NCBI GenBank assembly: GCA_025999215.1
Contig: AP024679.1
Coordinates: forward strand, 165,645 to 229,644
Direction of reading: 5' to 3'
Source of the DNA: Candidatus Dojkabacteria bacterium
GTDB lineage: Bacteria > Patescibacteriota > Dojkabacteria > J137
Length of the DNA stretch: 64,000 bases
Under the pieces are notes generated by a model. That model had not been told where the DNA came from. It searched no databases and saw only the letters and a list, made by a program, of their open reading frames with translations. This document shows, piece after piece, positions 5,212 through 18,276 of this stretch (positions within the stretch are counted from its first letter, which is position 1; every line of letters begins with the position of its first letter). A program made the translations under genes and the position numbers.

Positions 5212-7647
5212 TTAATTGTCTATTTTTAGTTTTAGGAGGGTTACTAAAAGAAGTATAGTCAAGGAAAAAGAGATGATTGTGAGGGCAGATTTCCAATAAA
5301 CTCTTTGCCCGGTTCCACCCAACTCTGGAGAAGAAACTGGCCCGCTAGAACCCTCAGTTTCACCTCCTCCTGATGTTACAACCTCAACATCAAAGACTTC
5401 CAAAATCACATCTCCGTTCAAATAATCGTAATTTATTCTAAAAACTACATTGTCAACTGAAATTAAAGCATTATCTGGCAAACCATCAAATTCTCCAATC
5501 AATGTATCAGAATCAATTATCAAAAATTCATCACCAATGTTTGGAGTATATCCGAGAACAATATCTAAAGTTGCGTTACCTAAGTCTACACTTTGAGCGT
5601 TTAATCTATCATACAAGGTGCAAGGCGTATCACCATCAATCTCTACCTCAAAAACAGATCCTGCTGTCATTGTAAAATTTGTTATATTAATACAACCAGG
5701 AGAAGATCCTGGGTTTACAGTTGATCCGGTGCCTGCAATAACAACATTTATACTACCCGTACCAAGTAACTTAGCCCCTGAACCTAAGCTCACAGCACCC
5801 AAGAAATTACTATCAAAAATTAATGTTCCTCCAATGTTATTAATACTGACTACTGAATCAATCAATGCATTGAGCAAGCGCCATTGACCTGAAAGAATTT
5901 CTATAGTCCCATCATAATCTAAAATACCACTAAATGTACCATTAGGATTAGAAAGTCGTAGGATATCAAAACTATCAAACTCAAAAGTACCTGATCCATA
6001 AATTCCTCTAATAGTTTCGTTTAGACCAGCGAAATAAATACCGCTATTATCGCTCAAAATTATCTCTGTACTATCAGAAACATTACCTTCTCCTGATCCA
6101 GTTCCATAAAAATCTATATACTGATTTTCCGAAACCATAATTCGATTAGCCTTAATAAATCCGTCATCTTGAAACTCAAGCGGTAAATTTAAAATAATAT
6201 CTCCAGCGACGTCAAAGTTACACTGTGTTCCACAAACCAAATTTGATGCAGGGCCATTTAGTATCAAATTACTATTTGAAGTAATACTTGAAGATATAGT
6301 GAATGAACCTAAAAATAAATCTGAACTACCAAAACCTATAGAAGCATCTGATGTGAAAGTATAGCTTCCTGATATAATCAAGTTGCTAGAAAACTTAACA
6401 ACCTCACCTCCGGGCACTGCGCTTGAAATATAAAAATTTTCTTCTATCAAAGGAGTTGTCCCACCTCTTCCACCACCTCCTAACTCTCCTTTCAAAACTA
6501 TAGAAGAATTTCCATTTACATATGTACCTCCTAAATTAGAACCTAATGCATTTTGGTGATTGGTTTGTAAAAACGCGCTATCATTTAGATAGATGTCTCC
6601 ATCAAAAGCAATTGCATTCAAAATTTCAACATCCAGGTTGCCACCTAAAATTAATTTCGAGTCCTGTAACCCAACAATATCATTATTAAACCTGATAAAG
6701 TTGTAACCCGATTGGCCAACAAACTTGAGAGAGCTTTCAGCATCATCAATGTAAATACTATTATTTATGTTAACAATTGCACCATTAAGACTGACCACAG
6801 CATTTGTTCCTAAGCCCAAACCCAAATCATCTAAATACCAATCTCCGTTAAAAGTGAGATTAGTTGCACCTTTTAATATCATGAACACATCATTTTCCTC
6901 TGGAATGTTATTAAAGTTAAACTCTACAAAGTAATCAATTGTTAAATTCCCCTCAAACTCAAAAACACCATGATTAGCTCCACCTTCAAATGAAATTGCA
7001 TTACCCCCATCTCCAAAACAGTCAGAGTTTTTACATACAACCTTTCCTTCCAAATTCCTAAAATAGTAATTATCAATGTACAGATCACCAGAACCATTTA
7101 TTGTGAGAGTAGCGGCTCCTTCTTTAATTACTTCGAAAGCATTACCATATAAACCTCCATTAATGGTTAAATTTTGATTAATCTCAAGTCTAAAAGTAGA
7201 AGCTATATCATTAAAAACAATGCTATTGAGTGTTGATTGACTATTTACAATTATTGAAGGAGCTGAACTAAAAGCTGAATCAAGCTCAATATCGGCACCC
7301 GAGCCGAAATTGACATTGCCTGATATTTCCAATGTAGAAGCAATTAAATTTGATGTTCCAGCAGAAAATTGATAATTATCTCCTGTTATTTGAACAGAAT
7401 TTAAATTCGGTAGAGAATTAAGTGTGATATTTTTATTCGTCGCAACTTCAGGAAAAATTAAACTGTCACCTATTTCTGGCATTCCTCCATTGTCACATCC
7501 TGTCCAATTGCTAGCATCAGATGTATCTCCAGAAACAGCACCAGTCCATGTACAAGTATCAGTAGCAGCAGAGACCCCAGAATGTATAAAAAGAAAAAGC
7601 AAGATAGAAAAAGCAAAAATTGAACCTATTTTTATCAATTGCTTCAT
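5212..7647 (-). CDS. large secreted Gly/Asn/Ser-rich repeat (beta-helix/adhesin-like) surface protein with a C-terminal hydrophobic anchor
   Basis: An N-terminal signal peptide (MKQLIKIGSIFAFSILLFLFIHSGVSA) precedes about 700 aa of degenerate G/N/S/T-rich repeats. The C-terminus reads SSPELGGTGQRVYWKSALTIISFSLTILLLVTLLKLKIDN, a TM helix plus a short basic tail, resembling a sorting/anchor signal. Confidence 0.6.
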   Translation of the reverse strand: MKQLIKIGSIFAFSILLFLFIHSGVSAATDTCTWTGAVSGDTSDASNWTGCDNGGMPEIGDSLIFPEVATNKNITLNSLPNLNSVQITGDNYQFSAGTSNLIASTLEISGNVNFGSGADIELDSAFSSAPSIIVNSQSTLNSIVFNDIASTFRLEINQNLTINGGLYGNAFEVIKEGAATLTINGSGDLYIDNYYFRNLEGKVVCKNSDCFGDGGNAISFEGGANHGVFEFEGNLTIDYFVEFNFNNIPEENDVFMILKGATNLTFNGDWYLDDLGLGLGTNAVVSLNGAIVNINNSIYIDDAESSLKFVGQSGYNFIRFNNDIVGLQDSKLILGGNLDVEILNAIAFDGDIYLNDSAFLQTNHQNALGSNLGGTYVNGNSSIVLKGELGGGGRGGTTPLIEENFYISSAVPGGEVVKFSSNLIISGSYTFTSDASIGFGSSDLFLGSFTISSSITSNSNLILNGPASNLVCGTQCNFDVAGDIILNLPLEFQDDGFIKANRIMVSENQYIDFYGTGSGEGNVSDSTEIILSDNSGIYFAGLNETIRGIYGSGTFEFDSFDILRLSNPNGTFSGILDYDGTIEILSGQWRLLNALIDSVVSINNIGGTLIFDSNFLGAVSLGSGAKLLGTGSINVVIAGTGSTVNPGSSPGCINITNFTMTAGSVFEVEIDGDTPCTLYDRLNAQSVDLGNATLDIVLGYTPNIGDEFLIIDSDTLIGEFDGLPDNALISVDNVVFRINYDYLNGDVILEVFDVEVVTSGGGETEGSSGPVSSPELGGTGQRVYWKSALTIISFSLTILLLVTLLKLKIDN

Positions 7648-8598: not shown

Positions 8599-9771
8599 AT
8601 GGAAAAATTAAAAATCGCATACATTATTCCAAGATTTCACCCGTTCAAAGGAGGAGCAGAACAAAACACCGAAGCTTTGGCTTTGCGAGCTTGTAAAGAT
8701 GGGCATTCGGTTACTGTTTTGACAACAAACGAACGCTTTAGAAACGAGAAACTACCTAAAATTGAAAATTACAAAGGAATTAAAATAATAAGGATGAATG
8801 CGTTTATCAAAGCGCCTCTCTATGCTGGATTTTATCCTGAATTGTTTTGGCATCTCAGAAAAAATAACTACGATATAATTCATTGCTCTGGAATTGGGTT
8901 TTTGTGGCGGGAAATATGTTTGAGATTAAACAAAAAGAAAAATACTCTGTACGTATGTACTCCTCACGGACCTTTCATGGCTCTAAACGATACTCAAGGA
9001 ATCAGAGGATTAGCAAAAAAATACTATACAAAAAAATTAAGAAAGTTTCTTAATAATCTTTATGATATTTTTGTTCAAGTAAATCCAAAACAAGAAAAAT
9101 GGATGAGTGAAGAATACAACATATCAAAAGAAAAAATTGTACTAATCCCAAACGGAATTGACAAAGAGTACATAGCTCCAAAAATTTACTCAGAAAAATT
9201 TAAAAGAAAACCAGTCATAACTTACATCGGCAGACTTGCCAACTACAAAGGCGTTCACTTTGTATTAGAAGCTTTATATAAAATTAAAAAATCTAAAGTT
9301 AAAGTTCCTCCATTTGAATTTTGGGTAATGGGTAGAAGTCAGGGAGATTACACCAGCTATTTACAGAACTTAATAAAAAAATTCTCTCTGGAAGATGAAG
9401 TTAAGTTAATATTTTCTCCAACTGATGAAAAAAGAGATGAGATTTTATTCAAACACTCTCATATTCACATACTACCTAGCAAGTGGGAAGCAACAGGAAT
9501 AGTTTTGCTTGAAGCAATGGCAAAGGGTAATGCGCTAATTTCTACAAAACAAAACGAAATGCATGATCTAATAATACAAGAGGGAGTTAATGGCTTTACT
9601 TATAATTACGATGATGTAAACAAACTGAAAAAAATACTAATTGAGCTATTAAATAACCCAAAACTTTGCATTGAAATGTCAGAAAAAAATCTTGAAAAGG
9701 TAAAAAATTTTACCTGGGAAGCAAGTTACGAACTCTACAAAAACCAAGTTATTTCAAAAGCAAAAATATGA
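8599..9771 (+). CDS. glycosyltransferase family 4 (GT-B, group 1)
   Basis: N-terminal IAYIIPRFHPFKGGAEQ and a C-terminal EATGIVLLEAMAKGNALIST sequence (E-x7-E region) are typical of GT4. Confidence 0.8.
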   Translation: MEKLKIAYIIPRFHPFKGGAEQNTEALALRACKDGHSVTVLTTNERFRNEKLPKIENYKGIKIIRMNAFIKAPLYAGFYPELFWHLRKNNYDIIHCSGIGFLWREICLRLNKKKNTLYVCTPHGPFMALNDTQGIRGLAKKYYTKKLRKFLNNLYDIFVQVNPKQEKWMSEEYNISKEKIVLIPNGIDKEYIAPKIYSEKFKRKPVITYIGRLANYKGVHFVLEALYKIKKSKVKVPPFEFWVMGRSQGDYTSYLQNLIKKFSLEDEVKLIFSPTDEKRDEILFKHSHIHILPSKWEATGIVLLEAMAKGNALISTKQNEMHDLIIQEGVNGFTYNYDDVNKLKKILIELLNNPKLCIEMSEKNLEKVKNFTWEASYELYKNQVISKAKI

Positions 9772-10472
9772 AACTCTACATTGTTGGGACTTCCATTGGA
9801 AATATTGACGACATATCACCAAGAGCGATCAAAGTTCTAAGCGAAGCTGATGTGATACTAGCGGAAGATACTAGAGTTTTTGGAAAATTAAAAAGCATTT
9901 TGTTAGATAGATACAAAGATTTAAATTTCAATCCTTTACAAAAAGTAATTTCTTATCGAGAACAAAATCATGATAGGGTGATTGATTCAATAATTAAGTA
10001 TTTAGAGAGCAACAAAATGGTTGTGCAAATATCAGATAGTGGCATGCCTGGAATATCTGATCCCGGTTTTCTTTTATACAAAAGAGTTATTAATGAAGGC
10101 TTTGAATTAGATGTTATACCTGGACCAAGTAGTGTTATTACTGGATTGGTTGCATCAGGTTTACCAACTGATAGGTTTGTGTTTTTAGGATTTCTTCCCA
10201 GAAAAAAATCTAAAGCAAAAAATTTGCTAGAAATTGCTTTTAAAACTAATTTCACATTAATTTGCTTTGAATCACCATTTAGAATTAGAAAACTTTTAGA
10301 ACTTGTGGAAGAAATAGATAAAAATACGCAAATTGCCCTGTGCAAAGAACTAACAAAAAAACATCAGAAAATTTATAGAGGCACGGCCGTATCTTTACTC
10401 AATGAACTGCCATCAAAGATCAGTGGAGAATTTGTTGTGGTTATGAAAAAAACTACTGTAGATCAACTCTAA
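9768..10472 (+). CDS. rsmI: 16S rRNA (cytidine1402-2'-O)-methyltransferase RsmI
   Basis: LYIVGTSIGNIDDISPRAIKVLSEADVILAEDTR is the characteristic RsmI N-terminus. The protein is tetrapyrrole-methylase fold. Confidence 0.85.
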   Translation: MKLYIVGTSIGNIDDISPRAIKVLSEADVILAEDTRVFGKLKSILLDRYKDLNFNPLQKVISYREQNHDRVIDSIIKYLESNKMVVQISDSGMPGISDPGFLLYKRVINEGFELDVIPGPSSVITGLVASGLPTDRFVFLGFLPRKKSKAKNLLEIAFKTNFTLICFESPFRIRKLLELVEEIDKNTQIALCKELTKKHQKIYRGTAVSLLNELPSKISGEFVVVMKKTTVDQL

Positions 10473-11985
10473 AACTCAAAGCTTCACTTATGTGATCATC
10501 TAAAACATCAAAACTTCCTTCCAAGTCTGCAATAGTGCGAGCTACTTTTAATATTCTGGTGTATGAACGAGCTGATAAATTAAGCCTGTCTACAGCAAGT
10601 TTAAGTAGCGACTTTGAAGAGTCGGGTAGGTTTATAAATTTTTCTAATTGTTTTTGCCCCATGTCTGAATTTGTGTATAAATTTTGGTTTATAAACCTTT
10701 CTTTTTGTATTTTCCTAGCTGTCTCAACTCTTTTTCTTACCTGGCTTGAACTTTCTTGATTTTGTGAGTTTTCTATTAATTTTTGATGCTCGACCTTGTT
10801 TACATGGACCAACAAATCTATGCGGTCAAGTATTGGACCAGATATTTTCTTTTGATAAAGCTGAACTTCTCTTTGAGTACAAGTGCATTTTTTGTTAGGA
10901 TCACCCCTAAAACCGCATTTACAAGGATTCATAGCAGCAACCAAAATGAAATTTGCCGGAAAAGATAAGCTTCCAGACGCCCGAGAAATTGTAACTACTT
11001 TATCTTCTAGCGGTTGCCGGAGAGCTTCCAAAGCCTTAGAACTAAACTCTGGAAATTCATCTAGAAATAAAACACCTCTGTGTGCAAGTGAAATTTCTCC
11101 AGGTTTTGGATTTGTTCCACCACCGACCAGTGCTACCTGAGAAGATGTATGGTGCGGTTTTCTAAATGGCCTTTTTTCAATCAAAGGAACATCTTTTGAG
11201 GTTAATCCTGCAATGCTATAAATTTGAGTTACTTCAAGTTTTTCATTTAAATCCATTTCTGGGAGAATTGAAGGTATACATTTTGAAAGCATTGTTTTTC
11301 CTGACCCAGGAACTCCTGACAACAAAATGTTGTGTCCACCTGCTGCCGCTATTTCTAGAGCTCTCTTGGCATGCTCTTGCCCTTTGACATACTTTAAATC
11401 ATTTTCTAAAAAATTTTTTCTGGTTGTTTTTTCCGTTCTGTTTGGAATACTAAACTCATAACCTTCTTCAAAATATTTGATTATCTCTTTAAGATGTTTA
11501 ACTCCGTACAGATTAATGTCTTTAACTGTAGATGCTTCTAAAATATTGTCATAAGGAATAAACGCTTCACTAAATCCCAAATTTTTAATCTGAGCTATTA
11601 TTGGTAAAATTCCTCTAATTGGTCTAACTCTGCCATCTAAAGCTAACTCACCCAAAAAAATTTTTCCTTCAGAATCAAAATTTAATTGATTAGTAGCTTT
11701 CATGTATGCAACTGCCATCGGTAAATCAAAACCTGCTCCAGACTTGGTTAATTCTGCTGGTGCTAAGTTTAAAATGATTCTCATAGCGTTAAATTTGCCT
11801 CCTGAAGATCTGATTGCAGAAGGGATTCTATCTTTTGCTTCTTGAGTAGATTTATCTGCTAAACCAACAATAACTGTTCGGGCTTGCCCCGTAGAATTAT
11901 ACGCTTCAACCTCTATAATGTTGCAATACAACCCTGTGAGCACTGCTGAATACACTTTCGCTAATTTCTGCTTTTGCATTTGCAC
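10453..11985 (-). CDS. comM: YifB/ComM-family Mg-chelatase-like AAA+ ATPase
   Basis: An N-terminal Lon-like/ChlI N domain is followed by Walker A LLSGVPGSGKTML, an arginine-finger region, and the C-terminal Mg_chelatase_C domain. Confidence 0.85.
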   Translation of the reverse strand: MQMQKQKLAKVYSAVLTGLYCNIIEVEAYNSTGQARTVIVGLADKSTQEAKDRIPSAIRSSGGKFNAMRIILNLAPAELTKSGAGFDLPMAVAYMKATNQLNFDSEGKIFLGELALDGRVRPIRGILPIIAQIKNLGFSEAFIPYDNILEASTVKDINLYGVKHLKEIIKYFEEGYEFSIPNRTEKTTRKNFLENDLKYVKGQEHAKRALEIAAAGGHNILLSGVPGSGKTMLSKCIPSILPEMDLNEKLEVTQIYSIAGLTSKDVPLIEKRPFRKPHHTSSQVALVGGGTNPKPGEISLAHRGVLFLDEFPEFSSKALEALRQPLEDKVVTISRASGSLSFPANFILVAAMNPCKCGFRGDPNKKCTCTQREVQLYQKKISGPILDRIDLLVHVNKVEHQKLIENSQNQESSSQVRKRVETARKIQKERFINQNLYTNSDMGQKQLEKFINLPDSSKSLLKLAVDRLNLSARSYTRILKVARTIADLEGSFDVLDDHISEALSFRVDLQ

Positions 11986-12046
11986 ACTTTAATCTATTAA
12001 TAATTTTAAATTTTTGTATCATTAGTTTCATTGTATTGAAGTACAA

Positions 12047-12082
12047 AAAGAAAAGCGCCAAGAGGCGCTTTTCTTTTTTTTG
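12047..12082. terminator. bidirectional rho-independent terminator hairpin (GCGCC-AAGA-GGCGC flanked by A-run and T-run)
   Basis: AAAAGCGCCAAGAGGCGCTTTTCTTTTTTTT sits directly 3' of the minus-strand anti-sigma gene 12104..13549. Confidence 0.7.
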
Positions 12083-12103
12083 ATAGTAGTTAGAAAACTA
12101 CCC

Positions 12104-13549
12104 TCAATCTAAGAATCCCGAAGCAAATAAGTCATCAATAAACTCATCTGCTAACCAAAGCTTTGATCCGTCCGGTGCAATGTATGGATCCTGAAAAGTT
12201 GCACCGTATTTATCGCTGTATCCCGGCCAACCTGGTTGAGCATATATTTTATTACCTTTTGTATATACAGGTAGTACATAACTGTCTGAATCTTTATAAT
12301 ATTCATATTTATTCAAATAAATTCCACCGTTTATTTGATCAGTAATTTCTTGATTATTGATATATACATGCATAGATCTAATGACTCGACCACTGTTAGG
12401 ACCAGATCCACAATTGTAAAGTTTAATGAATATACCATTGTTCAAAAGTATCGCACCACCAGAGGAAGCACAAATACTTTGGTTTTTACCCGTGCTCTGG
12501 CTAATTTGGATTTTCTCCTGTAGTAATAAATCAAATTCATCTGTTGCTAATTCAAAGAACCCTGGTAAAAAAGGAAATGTTGTAAGATATCCTACTCTTG
12601 GCGTTGGATCTGGCGCTGGTTGTGGCTGTGGCGCCGGTTGTGGCTGTTGTGCTGGTTGCGGTTGTTGCGCTTGCGGCTGTGGTTCTGGTTCTTCTATTTT
12701 CTCCTCTTCAAATCTTAAGCTTGCTAGCACTCCTAAATTATCTCCAAAACCTTCACTATCTCTTTCTTTGTTGTACTCCACAAATTCCCTATCCAATTCT
12801 TTTGCTACTATCTCTCTCACTTCTAACCCTATCGCTTCTTTTCCTTGTTCTACTTCCACCTTTCCTTCTCCTTCCAATACTTCTACTTTGCTTTCATATA
12901 CCACTAACTTGCTTGTTTCTCCTTTTATTACACTAAATGCTGTTCCTTTTGCTACATAGTTGTATTCTCCTGCCTTTACTTCATATGTCCTTCTTTCTAC
13001 CTTTGCTACTCTTGAATATACTTCTCCTTCCATTAACTCCACTTCATACTCATCTTCTTTCAAACTATTCATCTTTACCTTTGTATTCTTATTCAATCTC
13101 ATATAACTTCCGTCTTGTAACATCACTTCTATTCTTCCTTCTTTCGTCTCTAGCTCATCACTCTCTTTTACCTCCATTTCTTGACTTGCTTCCTCACCAT
13201 TTATCATAACTTCTCCTTCTATTTCTGTTACTTTTCCTATGTGTGTTGCTACCTTTGCTTCCTCTTCAAAACTTTGTTGTACTTCTGCTTTTTCTTCCCT
13301 TGTTAATAAATAGTACCCACTTGGTACTGCTACCGTTAGTGCTAATGCTGACACTCCCAGCATCGCTATTTGTTTTTTGCCTAACTTCATAAACTGGTTT
13401 AGTAAAATGTAAAATGTGGGCTTTTCAAAACTTTTATCAAGTTTTTTTTCAATTTTTAGTTTTAAATCCACCGATGGAGTAGACTCTAGGTCTGAAAATT
13501 TATCTAAAAAATTTGTATTTTCTTGACTAAGTTTTTTCATAAGCCTCAC
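12104..13549 (-). CDS. membrane-spanning anti-sigma factor, variant 1 (shared N-terminal 310 aa plus unique C-terminal extracytoplasmic domain)
   Basis: Its start is 1 nt from the stop of the upstream ECF sigma gene, implying translational coupling. It has a cytoplasmic N-terminus, one TM helix (IAMLGVSALALTVAVPSGYYLL), a PQ-repeat linker, and then a unique 170-aa C-terminus. Confidence 0.55.
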   Translation of the reverse strand: MRLMKKLSQENTNFLDKFSDLESTPSVDLKLKIEKKLDKSFEKPTFYILLNQFMKLGKKQIAMLGVSALALTVAVPSGYYLLTREEKAEVQQSFEEEAKVATHIGKVTEIEGEVMINGEEASQEMEVKESDELETKEGRIEVMLQDGSYMRLNKNTKVKMNSLKEDEYEVELMEGEVYSRVAKVERRTYEVKAGEYNYVAKGTAFSVIKGETSKLVVYESKVEVLEGEGKVEVEQGKEAIGLEVREIVAKELDREFVEYNKERDSEGFGDNLGVLASLRFEEEKIEEPEPQPQAQQPQPAQQPQPAPQPQPAPDPTPRVGYLTTFPFLPGFFELATDEFDLLLQEKIQISQSTGKNQSICASSGGAILLNNGIFIKLYNCGSGPNSGRVIRSMHVYINNQEITDQINGGIYLNKYEYYKDSDSYVLPVYTKGNKIYAQPGWPGYSDKYGATFQDPYIAPDGSKLWLADEFIDDLFASGFLD

Positions 13550-14071
13550 TTAATTAGTATCAAATGGTGTACAAATAATTAATTTTTTTAAAGATTTTAT
13601 TGCTCTTTTCTGAGTAGTTTTAACATAGTTCATGTTTTTACCTAAATGTTTACAAATTTCTTGCAGACTCATTTTTTCTAAAAATCTTAATGTTGCTACC
13701 TCTCTTTGACTTTTGGGAAGTTTTTGAATAAATGGTCTTATTCGCTCCTCTGGCGTTTTTCCTTTAAAAAACTCAATAAACTTTTCAACATGAGTTTCTT
13801 CAAAATTTTCAATTTCAGATATATTTATTTCTCTTCTTTTGTATTTTTTCTTTAGTTCTTTGATGAATAAATTTTTGGCAATTCCATACAAAAAATATTT
13901 ATAACTTTCAATCTCAACTCCCTTATGAATACTTTGTGAAAACATTAAAAAAGTATCAGAAGTCAAGTCTTCTGCTACTTCTTTATTAAGAAATTTAAAA
14001 TAAAAAAATTTATATATATCATCAAAGTATTGTTCGAAAATAACTTTTATTATTCTAGGGTCTTGGGGCAT
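13550..14071 (-). CDS. ECF-type RNA polymerase sigma-70 family factor (copy 1)
   Basis: Region 2 (AEDLTSDTFLMF) and region 4 HTH (REVATLRFLEKMSLQEICKHLGKNMNYVKTTQKRAIKSLKKL) are present in 173 aa. Confidence 0.75.
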   Translation of the reverse strand: MPQDPRIIKVIFEQYFDDIYKFFYFKFLNKEVAEDLTSDTFLMFSQSIHKGVEIESYKYFLYGIAKNLFIKELKKKYKRREINISEIENFEETHVEKFIEFFKGKTPEERIRPFIQKLPKSQREVATLRFLEKMSLQEICKHLGKNMNYVKTTQKRAIKSLKKLIICTPFDTN

Positions 14072-14182
14072 TAATAATTTATTTTCTTAAAAACTAACTA
14101 CTCGTAATTATACTATATAGAAAAAAGTTTTATAATGTTTGTAAGTAATTACAAGCTTTGCTAAAATCCACCTAGATTTTGT

Positions 14183-14256
14183 CGGGGAGTAGTTCAGTTG
14201 GCTAGAACGCACGGCTGGGGGTCGTGAGGTCGCAGGTTCAAGTCCTGTCTCCCCGA
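14183..14256 (+). tRNA. tRNA-Pro (anticodon GGG), copy 1
   Basis: Cloverleaf: acceptor CGGGGAG/CTCCCCG, D-stem GTTC/GAAC, anticodon stem CACGG/TCGTG with loop CUGGGGG, T-arm GCAGG-TTCAAGT-CCTGT. It is 74 nt with no encoded CCA. Confidence 0.8.
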
Positions 14257-14281
14257 TGATTTTTAACTTTTAAGTTAAGAT

Positions 14282-14917
14282 ATGAGCAAAAATCCAAATT
14301 CTAGTTTAGAAAAAATGACAATTCCGCAGGATAGTGTAGTTGCAGAATCTATATACAACATATTTGAAAAAGTTAACAATTTCATGGAAAATGCGCCTGA
14401 TATTATTGATAAAAAACTTCCAGAATTTATATCTCATTTATTTACATTGGTAAATATGAAAACTTTTAATTTAGTTGAAGAATTAGTTAACCATCCTCAA
14501 AATGTATCAGATACTCTTAAATATGAACTTAAAACCAAATTTAATTCCAATGAAAATTTAAGCAAAATAATCAATGCCTTGACAAACAAGATTCTAGTTA
14601 AAGTAATGCTAAGAGGAGAAGCATCAAAAGACTCCTCTAATTACATAGATAAAAATTTTGATAAAACTCCCAGCAATCTAGTGATTGATGGGCTTATAGA
14701 AATTTTGATGTTTTGTGTAAACATACATCATATTATTTGTGATGCATATAATACAAATTACAATAATTCTTTACCTGGCAAGATTCAAAGTATTCTGAGA
14801 ATTTTGGAATTTTTTGGACTTAATTATGAAGTCAAATATGATAATGATAAGCGCTATATCAAAATTACAAATAGCTTAAATAATCTACCATTTATATTTG
14901 ATTATACCCTAAATTAG
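14282..14917 (+). CDS. hypothetical protein
   Basis: A clean ORF downstream of tRNA copy 1 with no recognised domain. Confidence 0.4.
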   Translation: MSKNPNSSLEKMTIPQDSVVAESIYNIFEKVNNFMENAPDIIDKKLPEFISHLFTLVNMKTFNLVEELVNHPQNVSDTLKYELKTKFNSNENLSKIINALTNKILVKVMLRGEASKDSSNYIDKNFDKTPSNLVIDGLIEILMFCVNIHHIICDAYNTNYNNSLPGKIQSILRILEFFGLNYEVKYDNDKRYIKITNSLNNLPFIFDYTLN

Positions 14918-15094
14918 ATCCATCAATTCTTTTTAAACCATCAGGACCTATAGCCACGGCATATAATCAAGAGAAATTTTTAAACAAGATAAATGGTATT
15001 AACTCACAACCGGAAAAGATAATCTAGGACCTCTATCAATCTTTTCAAAATCTTTTAAAACTTTTAAAAAGATTGTTCATTGTATTAAGATACA

Positions 15095-15131
15095 AAAAGA
15101 AAAGCGCTCATAAGAGCGCTTTTCTTTTTTA
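15095..15131. terminator. bidirectional rho-independent terminator hairpin (GCGCTC-ATAA-GAGCGC), diverged paralog of the 12047..12082 terminator
   Basis: AAAGCGCTCATAAGAGCGCTTTTCTTTTTT lies 3' of the anti-sigma gene 15143..16546. The stem carries compensatory changes relative to copy 1. Confidence 0.7.
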
Positions 15132-15142
15132 ATTTAAACTTA

Positions 15143-16546
15143 TCATAGAGAAAAATTCATTGTCCCTATAATTGTTTGCAACTCTGACTTTACTTGATTA
15201 AGCAAATCTGAGTCGTTTTTAAAAGCATATTCAATTCTTATGCCAGAGTATGAGTCTGAGGGGTTTTCGTAATATGCTAAAAGCCCTATCTTTCCATCAT
15301 ACCTAGTAGAAAAATAAACATTAAATATCTTTTGGTTTGCAGTGGTGAGTGTGTACTGTTGAAGCACATTAGATGGTCCACCACCTCCACATAAAGGACA
15401 CATGTTGTAGCTTATCCTATATGTAGAACTAAACTCTGAACTAGAAAATGTTACATCTTGTTGATTGTTGCCATAAACTGCACTAAATACTGCATTTCCA
15501 TATTCTGATGGATAATAGAAGCTAAAATCAAAATTAGGACTAGTAGCAAATGAATTACTACCAGATGGTGCAGGATGACCTTTTGATATATCTACAGGCG
15601 TTGGATCTGGCGCTGGTTGTGGCTGTGGCGCCGGTTGTGGCTGTTGTGCTGGTTGCGGTTGTTGCGCTTGCGGCTGTGGTTCTGGTTCTTCTATTTTCTC
15701 CTCTTCAAATCTTAAGCTTGCTAGCACTCCTAAATTATCTCCAAAACCTTCACTATCTCTTTCTTTGTTGTACTCCACAAATTCCCTATCCAATTCTTTT
15801 GCTACTATCTCTCTCACTTCTAACCCTATCGCTTCTTTTCCTTGTTCTACTTCCACCTTTCCTTCTCCTTCCAATACTTCTACTTTGCTTTCATATACCA
15901 CTAACTTGCTTGTTTCTCCTTTTATTACACTAAATGCTGTTCCTTTTGCTACATAGTTGTATTCTCCTGCCTTTACTTCATATGTCCTTCTTTCTACCTT
16001 TGCTACTCTTGAATATACTTCTCCTTCCATTAACTCCACTTCATACTCATCTTCTTTCAAACTATTCATCTTTACCTTTGTATTCTTATTCAATCTCATA
16101 TAACTTCCGTCTTGTAACATCACTTCTATTCTTCCTTCTTTCGTCTCTAGCTCATCACTCTCTTTTACCTCCATTTCTTGACTTGCTTCCTCACCATTTA
16201 TCATAACTTCTCCTTCTATTTCTGTTACTTTTCCTATGTGTGTTGCTACCTTTGCTTCCTCTTCAAAACTTTGTTGTACTTCTGCTTTTTCTTCCCTTGT
16301 TAATAAATAGTACCCACTTGGTACTGCTACCGTTAGTGCTAATGCTGACACTCCCAGCATTGCTATTTGTTTTTTGCCTAACTTCATAAACTGGTTTAGT
16401 AAAATGTAAAATGTGGGCTTTTCAAAACTTTTATCAAGTTTTTTTTCAATTTTTAGTTTTAAATCCACCGATGGAGTAGACTCTAGGTCTGAAAATTTAT
16501 CTAAAAAATTTGTATTTTCTTGACTAAGTTTTTTCATAAGCCTCAC
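15143..16546 (-). CDS. membrane-spanning anti-sigma factor, variant 2 (identical N-terminal 310 aa, different C-terminal domain)
   Basis: The N-terminal 310 aa are identical to the 12104..13549 product. The C-terminal 157 aa are unrelated and include a CPLCGGGG motif. Confidence 0.55.
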   Translation of the reverse strand: MRLMKKLSQENTNFLDKFSDLESTPSVDLKLKIEKKLDKSFEKPTFYILLNQFMKLGKKQIAMLGVSALALTVAVPSGYYLLTREEKAEVQQSFEEEAKVATHIGKVTEIEGEVMINGEEASQEMEVKESDELETKEGRIEVMLQDGSYMRLNKNTKVKMNSLKEDEYEVELMEGEVYSRVAKVERRTYEVKAGEYNYVAKGTAFSVIKGETSKLVVYESKVEVLEGEGKVEVEQGKEAIGLEVREIVAKELDREFVEYNKERDSEGFGDNLGVLASLRFEEEKIEEPEPQPQAQQPQPAQQPQPAPQPQPAPDPTPVDISKGHPAPSGSNSFATSPNFDFSFYYPSEYGNAVFSAVYGNNQQDVTFSSSEFSSTYRISYNMCPLCGGGGPSNVLQQYTLTTANQKIFNVYFSTRYDGKIGLLAYYENPSDSYSGIRIEYAFKNDSDLLNQVKSELQTIIGTMNFSL

Positions 16547-17068
16547 TTAATTAGTATCAAATGGTGTACAAATAATTAATTTTTTTAAAGATTTTATTGC
16601 TCTTTTTTGAGTAGTTTTAACATAGTTCATGTTTTTACCTAAATGTTTACAAATTTCTTGCAGACTCATTTTTTCTAAAAATCTTAATGTTGCTACCTCT
16701 CTTTGACTTTTGGGAAGTTTTTGAATAAATGGTCTTATTCGCTCCTCTGGCGTTTTTCCTTTAAAAAACTCAATAAACTTTTCAACATGAGTTTCTTCAA
16801 AATTTTCAATTTCAGATATATTTATTTCTCTTCTTTTGTATTTTTTCTTTAGTTCTTTGATGAATAAATTTTTGGCAATTCCATACAAAAAATATTTATA
16901 ACTTTCAATCTCAACTCCCTTATGAATACTTTGTGAAAACATTAAAAAAGTATCAGAAGTCAAGTCTTCTGCTACTTCTTTATTAAGAAATTTAAAATAA
17001 AAAAATTTATATATATCATCAAAGTATTGTTCGAAAATAACTTTTATTATTCTAGGGTCTTGGGGCAT
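16547..17068 (-). CDS. ECF-type RNA polymerase sigma-70 family factor (copy 2, identical protein)
   Basis: The product is 100% identical to the 13550..14071 product. Confidence 0.75.
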   Translation of the reverse strand: MPQDPRIIKVIFEQYFDDIYKFFYFKFLNKEVAEDLTSDTFLMFSQSIHKGVEIESYKYFLYGIAKNLFIKELKKKYKRREINISEIENFEETHVEKFIEFFKGKTPEERIRPFIQKLPKSQREVATLRFLEKMSLQEICKHLGKNMNYVKTTQKRAIKSLKKLIICTPFDTN

Positions 17069-17179
17069 TAATAATTTATTTTCTTAAAAACTAACTACTC
17101 GTAATTATACTATATAGAAAAAAGTTTTATAATGTTTGTAAGTAATTACAAGCTTTGTTAAAATCCACCTAGATTTTGT

Positions 17180-17253
17180 CGGGGAGTAGTTCAGTTGGCT
17201 AGAACGCACGGCTGGGGGTCGTGAGGTCGCAGGTTCAAGTCCTGTCTCCCCGA
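17180..17253 (+). tRNA. tRNA-Pro (anticodon GGG), copy 2
   Basis: Identical to 14183..14256. Confidence 0.8.
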
Positions 17254-17421
17254 TGATCAGAAGCTTTTACAATTTTTTAAAGCATTGTTTAGAATGGTGA
17301 TTTTTATGAATAGGTAAGTATTTCGATCCTATTCATAATAAATACGAGAAGAATGACATTGTCTCGATTGATACGATACTAATGTATAACGCGAACTGAT
17401 ATACTTATTTAATGAGTTTTT

Positions 17422-18276
17422 ATGGAACAGATAAACAGCAACCAACAAAAACCCGAAACTCGAGCCACTACTGAGCGTCCTGCAAACGACTGGTTGTTCT
17501 TTTTCTTAAATCAATTGGTTCAAATATTTAAAGATGATAATATTCAAGAAGTTTCTAGTCTAAGTTTAGAGGATTTAAATGCATATGACGAAAACCAAAT
17601 ATTGATTTCAAAGTTATCAGGTGTCAACACATTAACGAATCAAAAAATGATGCAAAAGGTATTTGAGTTAATAAATTCAAGGTATGACTCTAACGAATTA
17701 TTTAACAACATAAAAGAAGAGATTAATGAAAAAAATCTAGAAAAAATAAAACCTATGATACCAGAGATACTAGAGTTGATTAAAAAAGTTCTAAACAAAG
17801 CTCTAGTATTTGCTTCAAAAGAAACTAATAAAATTGCTTTTGACTATTTAATCCAAATACTTATTTTTTTAACAAATTTATATAACTACATAAACAATGT
17901 AGAGCCTCAAGTAAACAACCAAGAAACTATCCTATTAAATTCTTTATCAGCATATCAACTAAGCATTATGCATTTTTTGGATTTCATGTTTATATCTAAG
18001 AATGGCTTGAAATTTGGTGACAACATCGACATTGATACAGAAATTACAACTGATGTTCAACAATCCGACCTTATCGTTACAATTAAATTTATAAAAAACT
18101 CAAGAGAAAATAATAAAAATCAGGAAAAAACTGTAGAAGATCTAATTACACTTAATATACCTCCTGAACCTAAACCGAATTCTTATATTGATACATTGGA
18201 TCCATTGCTAGGCCCTACTGGGGTTATAGCTTGTAACATAAATCAAAACCCTAAGGCATGGGAAAAAATAGCCTAA
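17422..18276 (+). CDS. hypothetical protein (N/K-rich helical)
   Basis: A clean ORF with no recognised domain. Confidence 0.4.
   Translation: MEQINSNQQKPETRATTERPANDWLFFFLNQLVQIFKDDNIQEVSSLSLEDLNAYDENQILISKLSGVNTLTNQKMMQKVFELINSRYDSNELFNNIKEEINEKNLEKIKPMIPEILELIKKVLNKALVFASKETNKIAFDYLIQILIFLTNLYNYINNVEPQVNNQETILLNSLSAYQLSIMHFLDFMFISKNGLKFGDNIDIDTEITTDVQQSDLIVTIKFIKNSRENNKNQEKTVEDLITLNIPPEPKPNSYIDTLDPLLGPTGVIACNINQNPKAWEKIA

Follow-up and report, generated by a model that had tools for sequence, protein, structure and literature searches.

Tandem ECF sigma factor modules of a Candidatus Dojkabacteria genome share a near-identical core and carry unrelated tips on a putative anti-sigma factor

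Release of a sigma factor through proteolysis of its regulator has been described for FecR and FoxR (PMC9249621) and for RsgI (PMC10328401). In the FecI/FecR and FoxI/FoxR pairs, the gene of an extracytoplasmic function (ECF) sigma factor is followed by that of a single-pass regulator with a cytoplasmic N-terminus and an extracytoplasmic FecR domain that cleaves itself at a Gly-Thr bond (G181-T182 in FecR and G191-T192 in FoxR; PMC9249621). The SigI/RsgI sets of Clostridium thermocellum (PMC10328401, PMC12203970, PMC4711584) follow a monoderm-type design, with several paralogous modules per genome, in which a conserved juxtamembrane domain capable of self-cleavage is combined with interchangeable C-terminal sensors, a different tip in each module. 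Here we analyze a stretch of 64,000 nucleotides (nt), hereafter the window, from a Candidatus Dojkabacteria metagenome-assembled genome (MAG; GenBank assembly GCA_025999215.1, contig AP024679.1, positions 165,645 to 229,644), which contains two tandem modules, each consisting of genes for a predicted ECF sigma factor, a putative anti-sigma factor and a tRNA-Pro(GGG). The two modules share their core almost base for base and differ in the outermost, C-terminal domain (the tip) of the regulator. We hold with moderate confidence that this is a chromosomal tandem of one ECF sigma/anti-sigma pair that originated by an old duplication of the module, underwent later homogenization of the core, and connects two inputs to one sigma factor. 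What we describe is a real case of domain swapping in a signaling system of a known kind rather than a system of a new kind.

The only long repeat in the window is a direct repeat of 1661 bp (offset 2997 bp, 99.82% identity), with the copies and the genes that overlap them located as follows.
12600..14260: repeat copy 1, 1661 bp
15597..17257: repeat copy 2, 1661 bp
12104..13549, minus strand: anti-sigma-like gene 1, 481 aa from GTG; likely ATG at 13540, giving 478 aa
15143..16546, minus strand: anti-sigma-like gene 2, 467 aa; residues 1-317 identical to gene 1, then Cterm2
13550..14071, minus strand: ECF sigma gene 1, 173 aa, sigma-70 regions 2 and 4; its stop abuts the anti-sigma start (13549)
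16547..17068, minus strand: ECF sigma gene 2, protein identical to copy 1
14182-14257, plus strand: tRNA-Pro(GGG) copy 1 (ARAGORN; Rfam 61.3 bits), no encoded CCA
17179-17254, plus strand: tRNA-Pro(GGG) copy 2 (ARAGORN; Rfam 61.3 bits)
12107..12599, minus strand: Cterm1, aa 318-481 (164 aa), two conserved Cys; orthologs in P0001 (locus L011) and P0002 (locus L012)
15146..15596, minus strand: Cterm2, aa 318-467 (150 aa), CxxC motif; no homolog in the searches made

Only three mismatches separate the copies (13364, 13610 and 14161), and at each of them copy 1 has C where copy 2 has T; two fall in synonymous third-codon positions of the anti-sigma and sigma genes, and one is intergenic. Each copy includes the 173-aa ECF sigma gene, codons 1-317 of the anti-sigma-like gene and the tRNA-Pro(GGG) gene. 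On the tRNA side, the repeat ends 3 nt beyond the tRNA 3' end, and on the other side, exactly after the final codon of a Pro/Gln linker (...PAPDPTP). The order within the complete module is terminator, anti-sigma-like gene, sigma gene, divergent tRNA-Pro(GGG), and small orphan gene. A preliminary description of this DNA, made from the sequence without database searches, had proposed a mosaic of two modules 2997 bp apart, with a near-identical core and diverged or unrelated ends, and the repeat comparison bears this out. The near-identity that it reported stands, with three substitutions in place of roughly two, and the shared part of the anti-sigma proteins, originally put at the first 310 aa, extends over 317 aa from GTG (314 aa from the ATG used by the Logan gene caller), after which the two proteins diverge completely.

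The 173-aa protein is a predicted ECF (group 4) sigma factor. In Pfam, it matches only regions 2 and 4 (Sigma70_r2, 27.3 bits; Sigma70_r4 and r4_2, 34.9 and 33.2 bits, respectively); it scores 69.3 bits against TIGR02937 (sigma70-ECF, cutoff 42.9) and meets no specific subfamily cutoff, the best being that of BldN-type TIGR02952 (100.5 vs 206). The regulator begins with a short cytoplasmic N-terminus of approximately 55 aa that ends with KLGKKQ, followed by a single transmembrane (TM) helix (aa 61-82; Kyte-Doolittle mean of 1.66 over aa 61-79), a FecR domain (PF04773, aa 132-223; E = 8e-16, 58.6 bits, cutoff 24), a conserved segment 'EYNKERD...LGVL', and a spacer of about 33 aa (aa ~285-317), acidic at first and then Pro/Gln-rich, whose weak NCBIfam matches to the TonB proline-rich region are consistent with such a role. 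In general Pfam and NCBIfam scans, the central FecR domain alone was recognized, with no family in the N-terminal or C-terminal part. These assignments agree with the initial view of the gene pair, namely an ECF sigma gene and a co-directional, abutting gene for a single-pass membrane protein, the latter with an extracytoplasmic FecR domain. Part of the spacer is encoded by repetitive DNA:
12611..12671, minus strand: linker tandem repeat, imperfect 18-nt unit, 3.4 copies, encoding QPQPAP; 11 nt inside the left end of the 1661-bp repeat

In an alignment of the three closest proteins (the window protein, P0001 and P0002), G202-T203 ('KGTAF') is invariant and aligns with 'LGASF' / 'LGGSF' of the PDB entries 4M0N/4M0H, annotated 'putative anti-sigma factor'. 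By this alignment, G202-T203 is the position of the FecR/FoxR self-cleavage bond, and cleavage is predicted. The two PDB entries differ only at the residue after the conserved Gly (GA vs GG) and look like engineered variants of the self-cleavage site; they would be the nearest structural template for the FecR part of the regulator.

The tips are unrelated at the sequence level, as had been proposed. BLASTP comparison of Cterm1 and Cterm2 yields E >= 6.8; the Smith-Waterman score is 38, against 32.5 +/- 5.7 for shuffled sequences, with 172 of 1000 shuffles reaching 38; and hhalign of a three-sequence Cterm1 profile against Cterm2 gives a probability of 0.15%. In single-sequence AlphaFold2 models, pLDDT is too low for fold comparison (35 for Cterm1 and 37 for Cterm2). 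PDB sequence searches with both tips detected nothing significant, and matches of the Cterm1 profile to carbohydrate-binding modules are insignificant (4eib, E = 0.46; 1knl, E = 2.6) and only a lead. A word-indexed search with concatenated Cterm1 and Cterm2 found no match but, as the same method missed P0001, this is weak evidence for the orphan status of Cterm2. Viral-contig scans and PHROGs searched with Cterm2 and the proteins of the two small orphan genes (211 and 284 aa) gave nothing significant. The tip is the fastest-evolving part of the regulator, with 36% identity to P0001 vs 58% for the FecR part. The possibility that Cterm2 is a frame-shifted or inverted derivative of other DNA of the window was also considered and rejected, given that six-frame tblastn finds only the gene itself. 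The GC content and codon usage of every segment of the modules are native, matching the rest of the genome, and a foreign source for Cterm2 and the orphan genes is rejected on this basis.

We searched 1.84 billion representative proteins exhaustively with HMMER, using the Cterm1-bearing protein as the only query, and identified 797 relatives of the regulator at E <= 0.001. In the top matches inspected, the TM helix and the FecR domain are followed by a 'WNK.D..LG.L' motif and then by a Pro-rich linker that leads into a C-terminal region; 45 of the 150 listed matches contain the [WYF]NK motif. Four distinct relatives (L012-L016) have an ECF sigma gene directly upstream of the gene for the FecR protein, in five of five loci, and because this pairing is conserved across relatives, the long open reading frame (ORF) is called here a putative anti-sigma factor. 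Furthermore, an N-terminal motif, F...P/D..FK..LK..L, is common to the regulator and the non-FecR membrane proteins encoded after the closest relatives of the sigma factor in GTDB Dojkabacteria and other Patescibacteria. These relatives from the GTDB scan (<=52% identity) are uninformative on the history of the duplication, as they are single-copy, have non-FecR partners and have no tRNA nearby. The PQ linker probably accounts for the swamping of a word-indexed search with the full anti-sigma query, and a scan of Joint Genome Institute (JGI) metagenomes with the anti-sigma alignment produced no matches. In P0003-P0010 (L013-L016), the linker is followed by two tandem Cys-containing repeats ('GFKVxW…YYFRVCxY…C..YSN'), which are unlike either tip of the window and are not recognized by Pfam. 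L015 carries a second, different pair of sigma and membrane protein genes 4 kb away.

Like FecI/FecR and FoxI/FoxR (PMC9249621), each module consists of an ECF sigma gene followed by the gene of a single-pass regulator with a cytoplasmic N-terminus, an extracytoplasmic FecR domain and the Gly-Thr site, with presumed signal input at the C-terminal end and output at the N-terminal end. However, no gene for a TonB-dependent transducer was found among the neighbors in the window or in the loci of the relatives; neither the N-terminal, presumably sigma-binding part nor the C-terminal region matches a Pfam family; the E. coli FecR equivalog scores 24.8 bits (cutoff 385), and only over aa 134-237; and a Pro/Gln spacer with orphan tips takes the place of the transducer-binding C-terminus. 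Bacteria of the Candidate Phyla Radiation (CPR) are not known to have an outer membrane. The SigI/RsgI sets share with the modules described here the monoderm-type design, the juxtamembrane domain, the interchangeable C-terminal sensors and the paralogous modules with different tips. The resemblance is architectural only: the sigma factor is ECF rather than SigI, and no RsgI domains are detected in Pfam or NCBIfam. Whereas every RsgI of C. thermocellum is paired with a diverged SigI and a regulon of its own, the sigma factors and presumed sigma-binding parts here are identical, and the modules would be uninsulated. By architecture, the module is most like the SigI/RsgI sets but belongs to neither the FecR nor the RsgI systems.

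By analogy with FecR/FoxR and RsgI, the N-terminus of the regulator would hold the sigma factor at the membrane, and the Pro-rich spacer would project the tip away from it. A signal received at the tip would cause the regulator to be proteolyzed, with a possible contribution from Gly-Thr self-cleavage of the FecR domain, and sigma to be released. Because the sigma factors and the presumed sigma-binding parts are identical, the two regulators would feed one uninsulated sigma pool and regulon, that is, a two-input, one-output arrangement. The earlier suggestion that one ECF sigma factor is paired with alternative sensor domains thus fits what is observed, identical sigma factors and sigma-binding parts combined with different tips. 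The motif ATAAWTACGAGWAG has only three occurrences in the 64 kb: two (14098-14111 and 17095-17108, minus strand) precede the sigma starts by 27 nt, and the third (17338-17351, plus strand) precedes the 284-aa gene by 71 nt. Genes of the sigma regulon might share it as a promoter element but, having been derived post hoc from the same sequences, the motif is a lead only.

The locus, which encodes the GenBank proteins KatS3mg085_168, KatS3mg085_165 (BCX13633.1) and the sigma factors BCX13632.1/BCX13635.1, is on an 862,240-bp contig of the Candidatus Dojkabacteria MAG. The prefix 'KatS3mg' together with run DRR290133 points to the Katase hot-spring sediment study as the source of the MAG KatS3mg085 (mg085 is unnamed in the text of the paper); that study assembled PacBio HiFi reads with an N50 of 10.5 kb using metaFlye (PMC9671151). 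For PMC10928208, which cites the Katase study, DRR290133 is the only DDBJ dataset, and we infer that it is the Katase HiFi run. In the Logan k-mer assembly of this run, the repeat is represented by one contig of exactly 1661 bp with mixed variants (C, C, T), a contig of 1396 bp is identical to window positions 14231-15626, that is, the loop between the repeats plus 30 nt (k-1) of the repeat at each end, and the right-flank contig begins at 17228. The contigs break exactly at the repeat ends, as expected of the graph for the order core-loop-core. The whole two-module locus (<6.3 kb) is shorter than the HiFi N50, and the concern raised at the outset, that one of the copies might be artifactual, is largely removed by the Logan contigs and the HiFi assembly. 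A chromosomal tandem is favored on account of the long-read assembly and because the copies differ at three fixed positions.

The best HMMER match, P0001, is 51% identical to the regulator over residues 54-480, Cterm1 included, and is encoded on a 303-kb JGI contig (L011, JGI 3300034038), in which the gene order matches that of the window on both sides (TatD, GT4 glycosyltransferase, RsmI, ComM / module / TsaD, hydrolase, SOD, ApbE ... RmlD); the corresponding neighbors in the window are TatD, a GT4 glycosyltransferase, RsmI-like and ComM-like proteins, TsaD, a hydrolase, SOD and ApbE. The flanks are about 70% identical at the DNA level, and the orthologous proteins, 50-84%. Between ComM and TsaD, L011 has a single module, including a homolog of the window terminator. 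In the interval 9443-11215, its regulator has the TM-FecR-Cterm1 architecture and begins at the TM helix, without the cytoplasmic N-terminus; 273 non-coding nt separate it from a divergent tRNA-Pro(GGG), and after another 208 nt, TsaD follows. L011 lacks a sigma gene, and neither Cterm2 nor the 211-aa and 284-aa genes have a relative there. P0002 (L012) also carries Cterm1 and has an upstream sigma gene. Because it is found in both L011 and P0002, Cterm1, the tip encoded beside ComM, is taken to be the ancestral one; the number and content of the modules vary between related genomes.

The tRNA is a working gene, located 110 nt upstream of the sigma start on the opposite strand; CCT and CCC account for 248 of the 491 proline codons in 40 genes of the window. 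The tRNA body is identical between the window and L011 (9651-9727); the 3' CCA is encoded in L011 but in neither copy of the window (…CCCCGA then TGA; 14254-14260 and 17251-17257). In the Rfam search of the window, the tRNAs alone scored above the threshold, and a scan of JGI metagenomes with a 45-nt tRNA pattern gave no matches. The following features accompany copy 1 of the tRNA and the ends of the modules.
14139-14167: promoter-like TTGTAA-17-TAAAAT, before tRNA copy 1
14282..14917, plus strand: 211-aa orphan gene, KatS3mg085_165; starts 24 nt after the tRNA
17422..18276, plus strand: 284-aa orphan gene, KatS3mg085_168; distant paralog of the 211-aa gene
12027..12084, minus strand: intrinsic terminator 1, following anti-sigma gene 1; bidirectional hairpin with homologs in terminator 2 and at the corresponding place in L011
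15076..15133, minus strand: intrinsic terminator 2, a bidirectional hairpin where the 211-aa gene and anti-sigma gene 2 converge

The interval between the tRNA and the 211-aa gene (14258-14281, same strand) has no room for a promoter of the latter, which is probably co-transcribed with the tRNA. The genes that follow the modules had been described as different hypothetical genes; they are distinct but not unrelated, being distant homologs (29% identity over 141 aa) whose Smith-Waterman score of 88 is reached by 0 of 1000 shuffles (46.6 +/- 8.3, z about 5). A word-indexed search with the concatenated 211-aa and 284-aa proteins returned only the self match. The terminators are likewise homologous but diverged, as had been noticed early on: both are strong hairpins (-22 to -24 kcal/mol, z about -7) that are 78% identical without gaps; blastn aligns 55 nt of them at 87% identity, and the differences are in the loop and the upper end of the stem. 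In Rfam, the terminators have only sub-threshold matches to small RNAs. By alignment counts, the element TCAyTGTATT..TACAAAAAGAAAAGCGC..GCGCTTTTCT, present in both window copies and in L011 (~11216-11290), is about as conserved between species as between the copies, even though the surrounding genes are only ~70% identical in DNA, and it may be more than a plain terminator. Elsewhere in the window, an 811-aa ORF (5212-7647, minus strand) has no Pfam match at E <= 1e-5.

Concerted evolution by gene conversion is well known for tufA/tufB and for rRNA operons. The two modules resemble these cases in that the copies are near-identical, including synonymous and non-coding sites, while the flanks are far more diverged, but differ in that the tract here stops at a domain boundary, yielding two chimeric proteins with a shared body and unrelated tips. 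Directly to the left of the tract, Cterm1 and Cterm2 lack homology, whereas the right side and the far left (the terminators) are homologous. In the scenario that we favor, a whole module of ~3 kb (terminator, tip, core and orphan gene) was once duplicated in tandem; the tips and the orphan genes then would have diverged, or a tip would have been replaced; and recently, gene conversion or homologous recombination would have replaced the 1661-bp core of one module (the sigma gene, the anti-sigma gene as far as the linker end, the tRNA and the promoter region) with that of the other. The tRNA, kept unchanged by selection, and the repetitive 18-nt-repeat DNA of the linker, the sole stretches that old paralogs would still share, would have served as homology anchors, and conversion running into the tips would erase one of the sensors and be selected against. 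The older duplication of the whole module is suggested by the homology of the 211-aa and 284-aa proteins and of the terminators and by the native composition of the segments; recent copying of the core is suggested by its 0.18% divergence next to saturated flanks. An old duplication at one end with recent homogenization of the rest, one of the options initially offered, fits well with homologous terminators and downstream genes on the outside of a 99.8% identical core.

Several observations weigh against this reading, in its historical part or in its functional part. None of the genomes found combines two modules with a diverged core, so that we infer both the homogenization and the order of events. 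The only syntenic relative has one module, with no sigma gene and no gene of the 211/284 type, and the duplication might therefore be more recent than we assume, its ends having diverged very quickly. The identity drops from ~100% to undetectable within a few bases at both ends of the core, which also fits a discrete duplicative event. Nor does the terminator help to date the duplication: its similarity to the L011 element is about the same as that between the two window copies, indicating constraint. The anti-sigma activity, proteolysis and sensing are putative, drawn from analogy; the L011 protein persists without a sigma gene or a cytoplasmic N-terminus, and the outer part of the regulator may have a sigma-independent role, for example, in attachment. 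An AAC..(16-17 nt)..CGT ECF promoter is absent from the 130 nt upstream of sigma, as well as from the upstream regions of nine related sigma genes.

Among the other explanations for the two-copy arrangement, an assembly artifact, in which a repeat was collapsed or expanded or the alleles of two strains were placed in tandem, would have to be considered for any metagenome, and the k-mer graph alone cannot separate a chromosomal tandem from one module plus a 3-kb circle; yet, such an artifact is unlikely, with a very slim chance at best, considering that the HiFi N50 exceeds the locus, the copies have three fixed differences, the loop links the tRNA end of the core to its linker end in a separate assembly, and both flanks are syntenic with L011. 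We see an equally minute chance that the locus is a remnant of a tRNA-targeted integrative element. The identity does stop 3 nt after the tRNA 3' end, where three different sequences follow (the 211-aa gene, the 284-aa gene and, in L011, the spacer before TsaD), and the 211-aa and 284-aa genes are orphans missing in that relative, but the neighbors are housekeeping genes without an integrase or transposase, no partial tRNA (att-like) repeat is present in the 64 kb, no PHROG or viral-contig matches were obtained, and the composition is native. Moreover, because syntenic L011 carries the same tRNA beside the orthologous FecR-domain gene, the tRNA is an ancestral neighbor of the regulator gene and not an integration scar, so the suggestion that it marks an old integration site is not sustained. 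A Campbell-type origin in one step would involve a circularized allelic or paralogous module of ~3 kb (core, 211-aa gene, terminator 2 and Cterm2), from a sister chromosome or a related strain, integrating by a single crossover in the core. The sharp-edged core-loop-core order is the exact product of such a crossover, the loop is one contiguous 1396-bp unit in the k-mer graph, and, given the native composition, any donor would be a close relative. However, a donor with an unrecognizable tip and orphan gene should differ in the core as well, where only 3 of 1661 positions do, and neither such a donor nor a single-module Cterm2 allele turned up in any search; we consider this origin rather unlikely and rate it below older duplication with homogenization. 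Finally, the 1.66-kb repeats, bounded by the tRNA and the 18-nt-repeat linker DNA, might constitute a recombination cassette, which appears quite improbable. A 3.0-kb circle (core, 211-aa gene and Cterm2) would loop out and re-integrate, or exchange would occur at the linker, and the single-module, sigma-less L011 would be one outcome of such events; if so, the population would gain, lose or swap a surface-sensor or adhesin tip while keeping one sigma regulon.

With respect to function, the proteins might mainly be surface or attachment proteins with variable tips, involved, for instance, in host contact by episymbiotic CPR, with sigma control secondary or absent. In line with this role, L011 retains an intact TM-FecR-Cterm1 protein, 51% identical, with neither the sigma gene nor the cytoplasmic N-terminus, there is a weak NCBIfam match (21 bits, far below the cutoff) to the Leptospira FecR-domain adhesin Lsa19, and the tip evolves faster than the FecR part. 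Nevertheless, a co-directional sigma gene is located directly upstream in the window and in all five loci of the other relatives (L012-L016), the N-terminal motif is conserved with other sigma-linked proteins, and the sigma gene was co-duplicated and is intact in both copies, so that we regard a primarily adhesive function as decidedly unlikely.

CPR bacteria (Patescibacteria) have genomes below 1 Mb with very few regulators, and to our knowledge, how they sense their hosts and surroundings is largely unknown. We found no paper linking ECF/anti-sigma systems with Patescibacteria in the literature searched. Against this background, approximately 0.7% of an 862-kb genome is devoted to an ECF sigma module that is present twice, with the outermost domain of the regulator as the only difference. 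The components are of known kinds, namely, an ECF sigma factor, a FecR domain, and duplication with conversion, making the finding useful rather than surprising. If the interpretation of chromosomal duplication followed by core homogenization is correct, the locus is a clean natural example of sensor-domain swapping at a linker, with two inputs, one sigma factor and no insulation, and leads to a large family in which FecR-domain proteins with variable tips on a Pro-rich spacer function without TonB-dependent transducers. The main value of the locus lies in this clean example of recombination at a domain boundary and in the entry it provides to uncharacterized FecR-domain surface regulators of CPR bacteria, in which the tips are candidate domains for contact with the host or the envelope.

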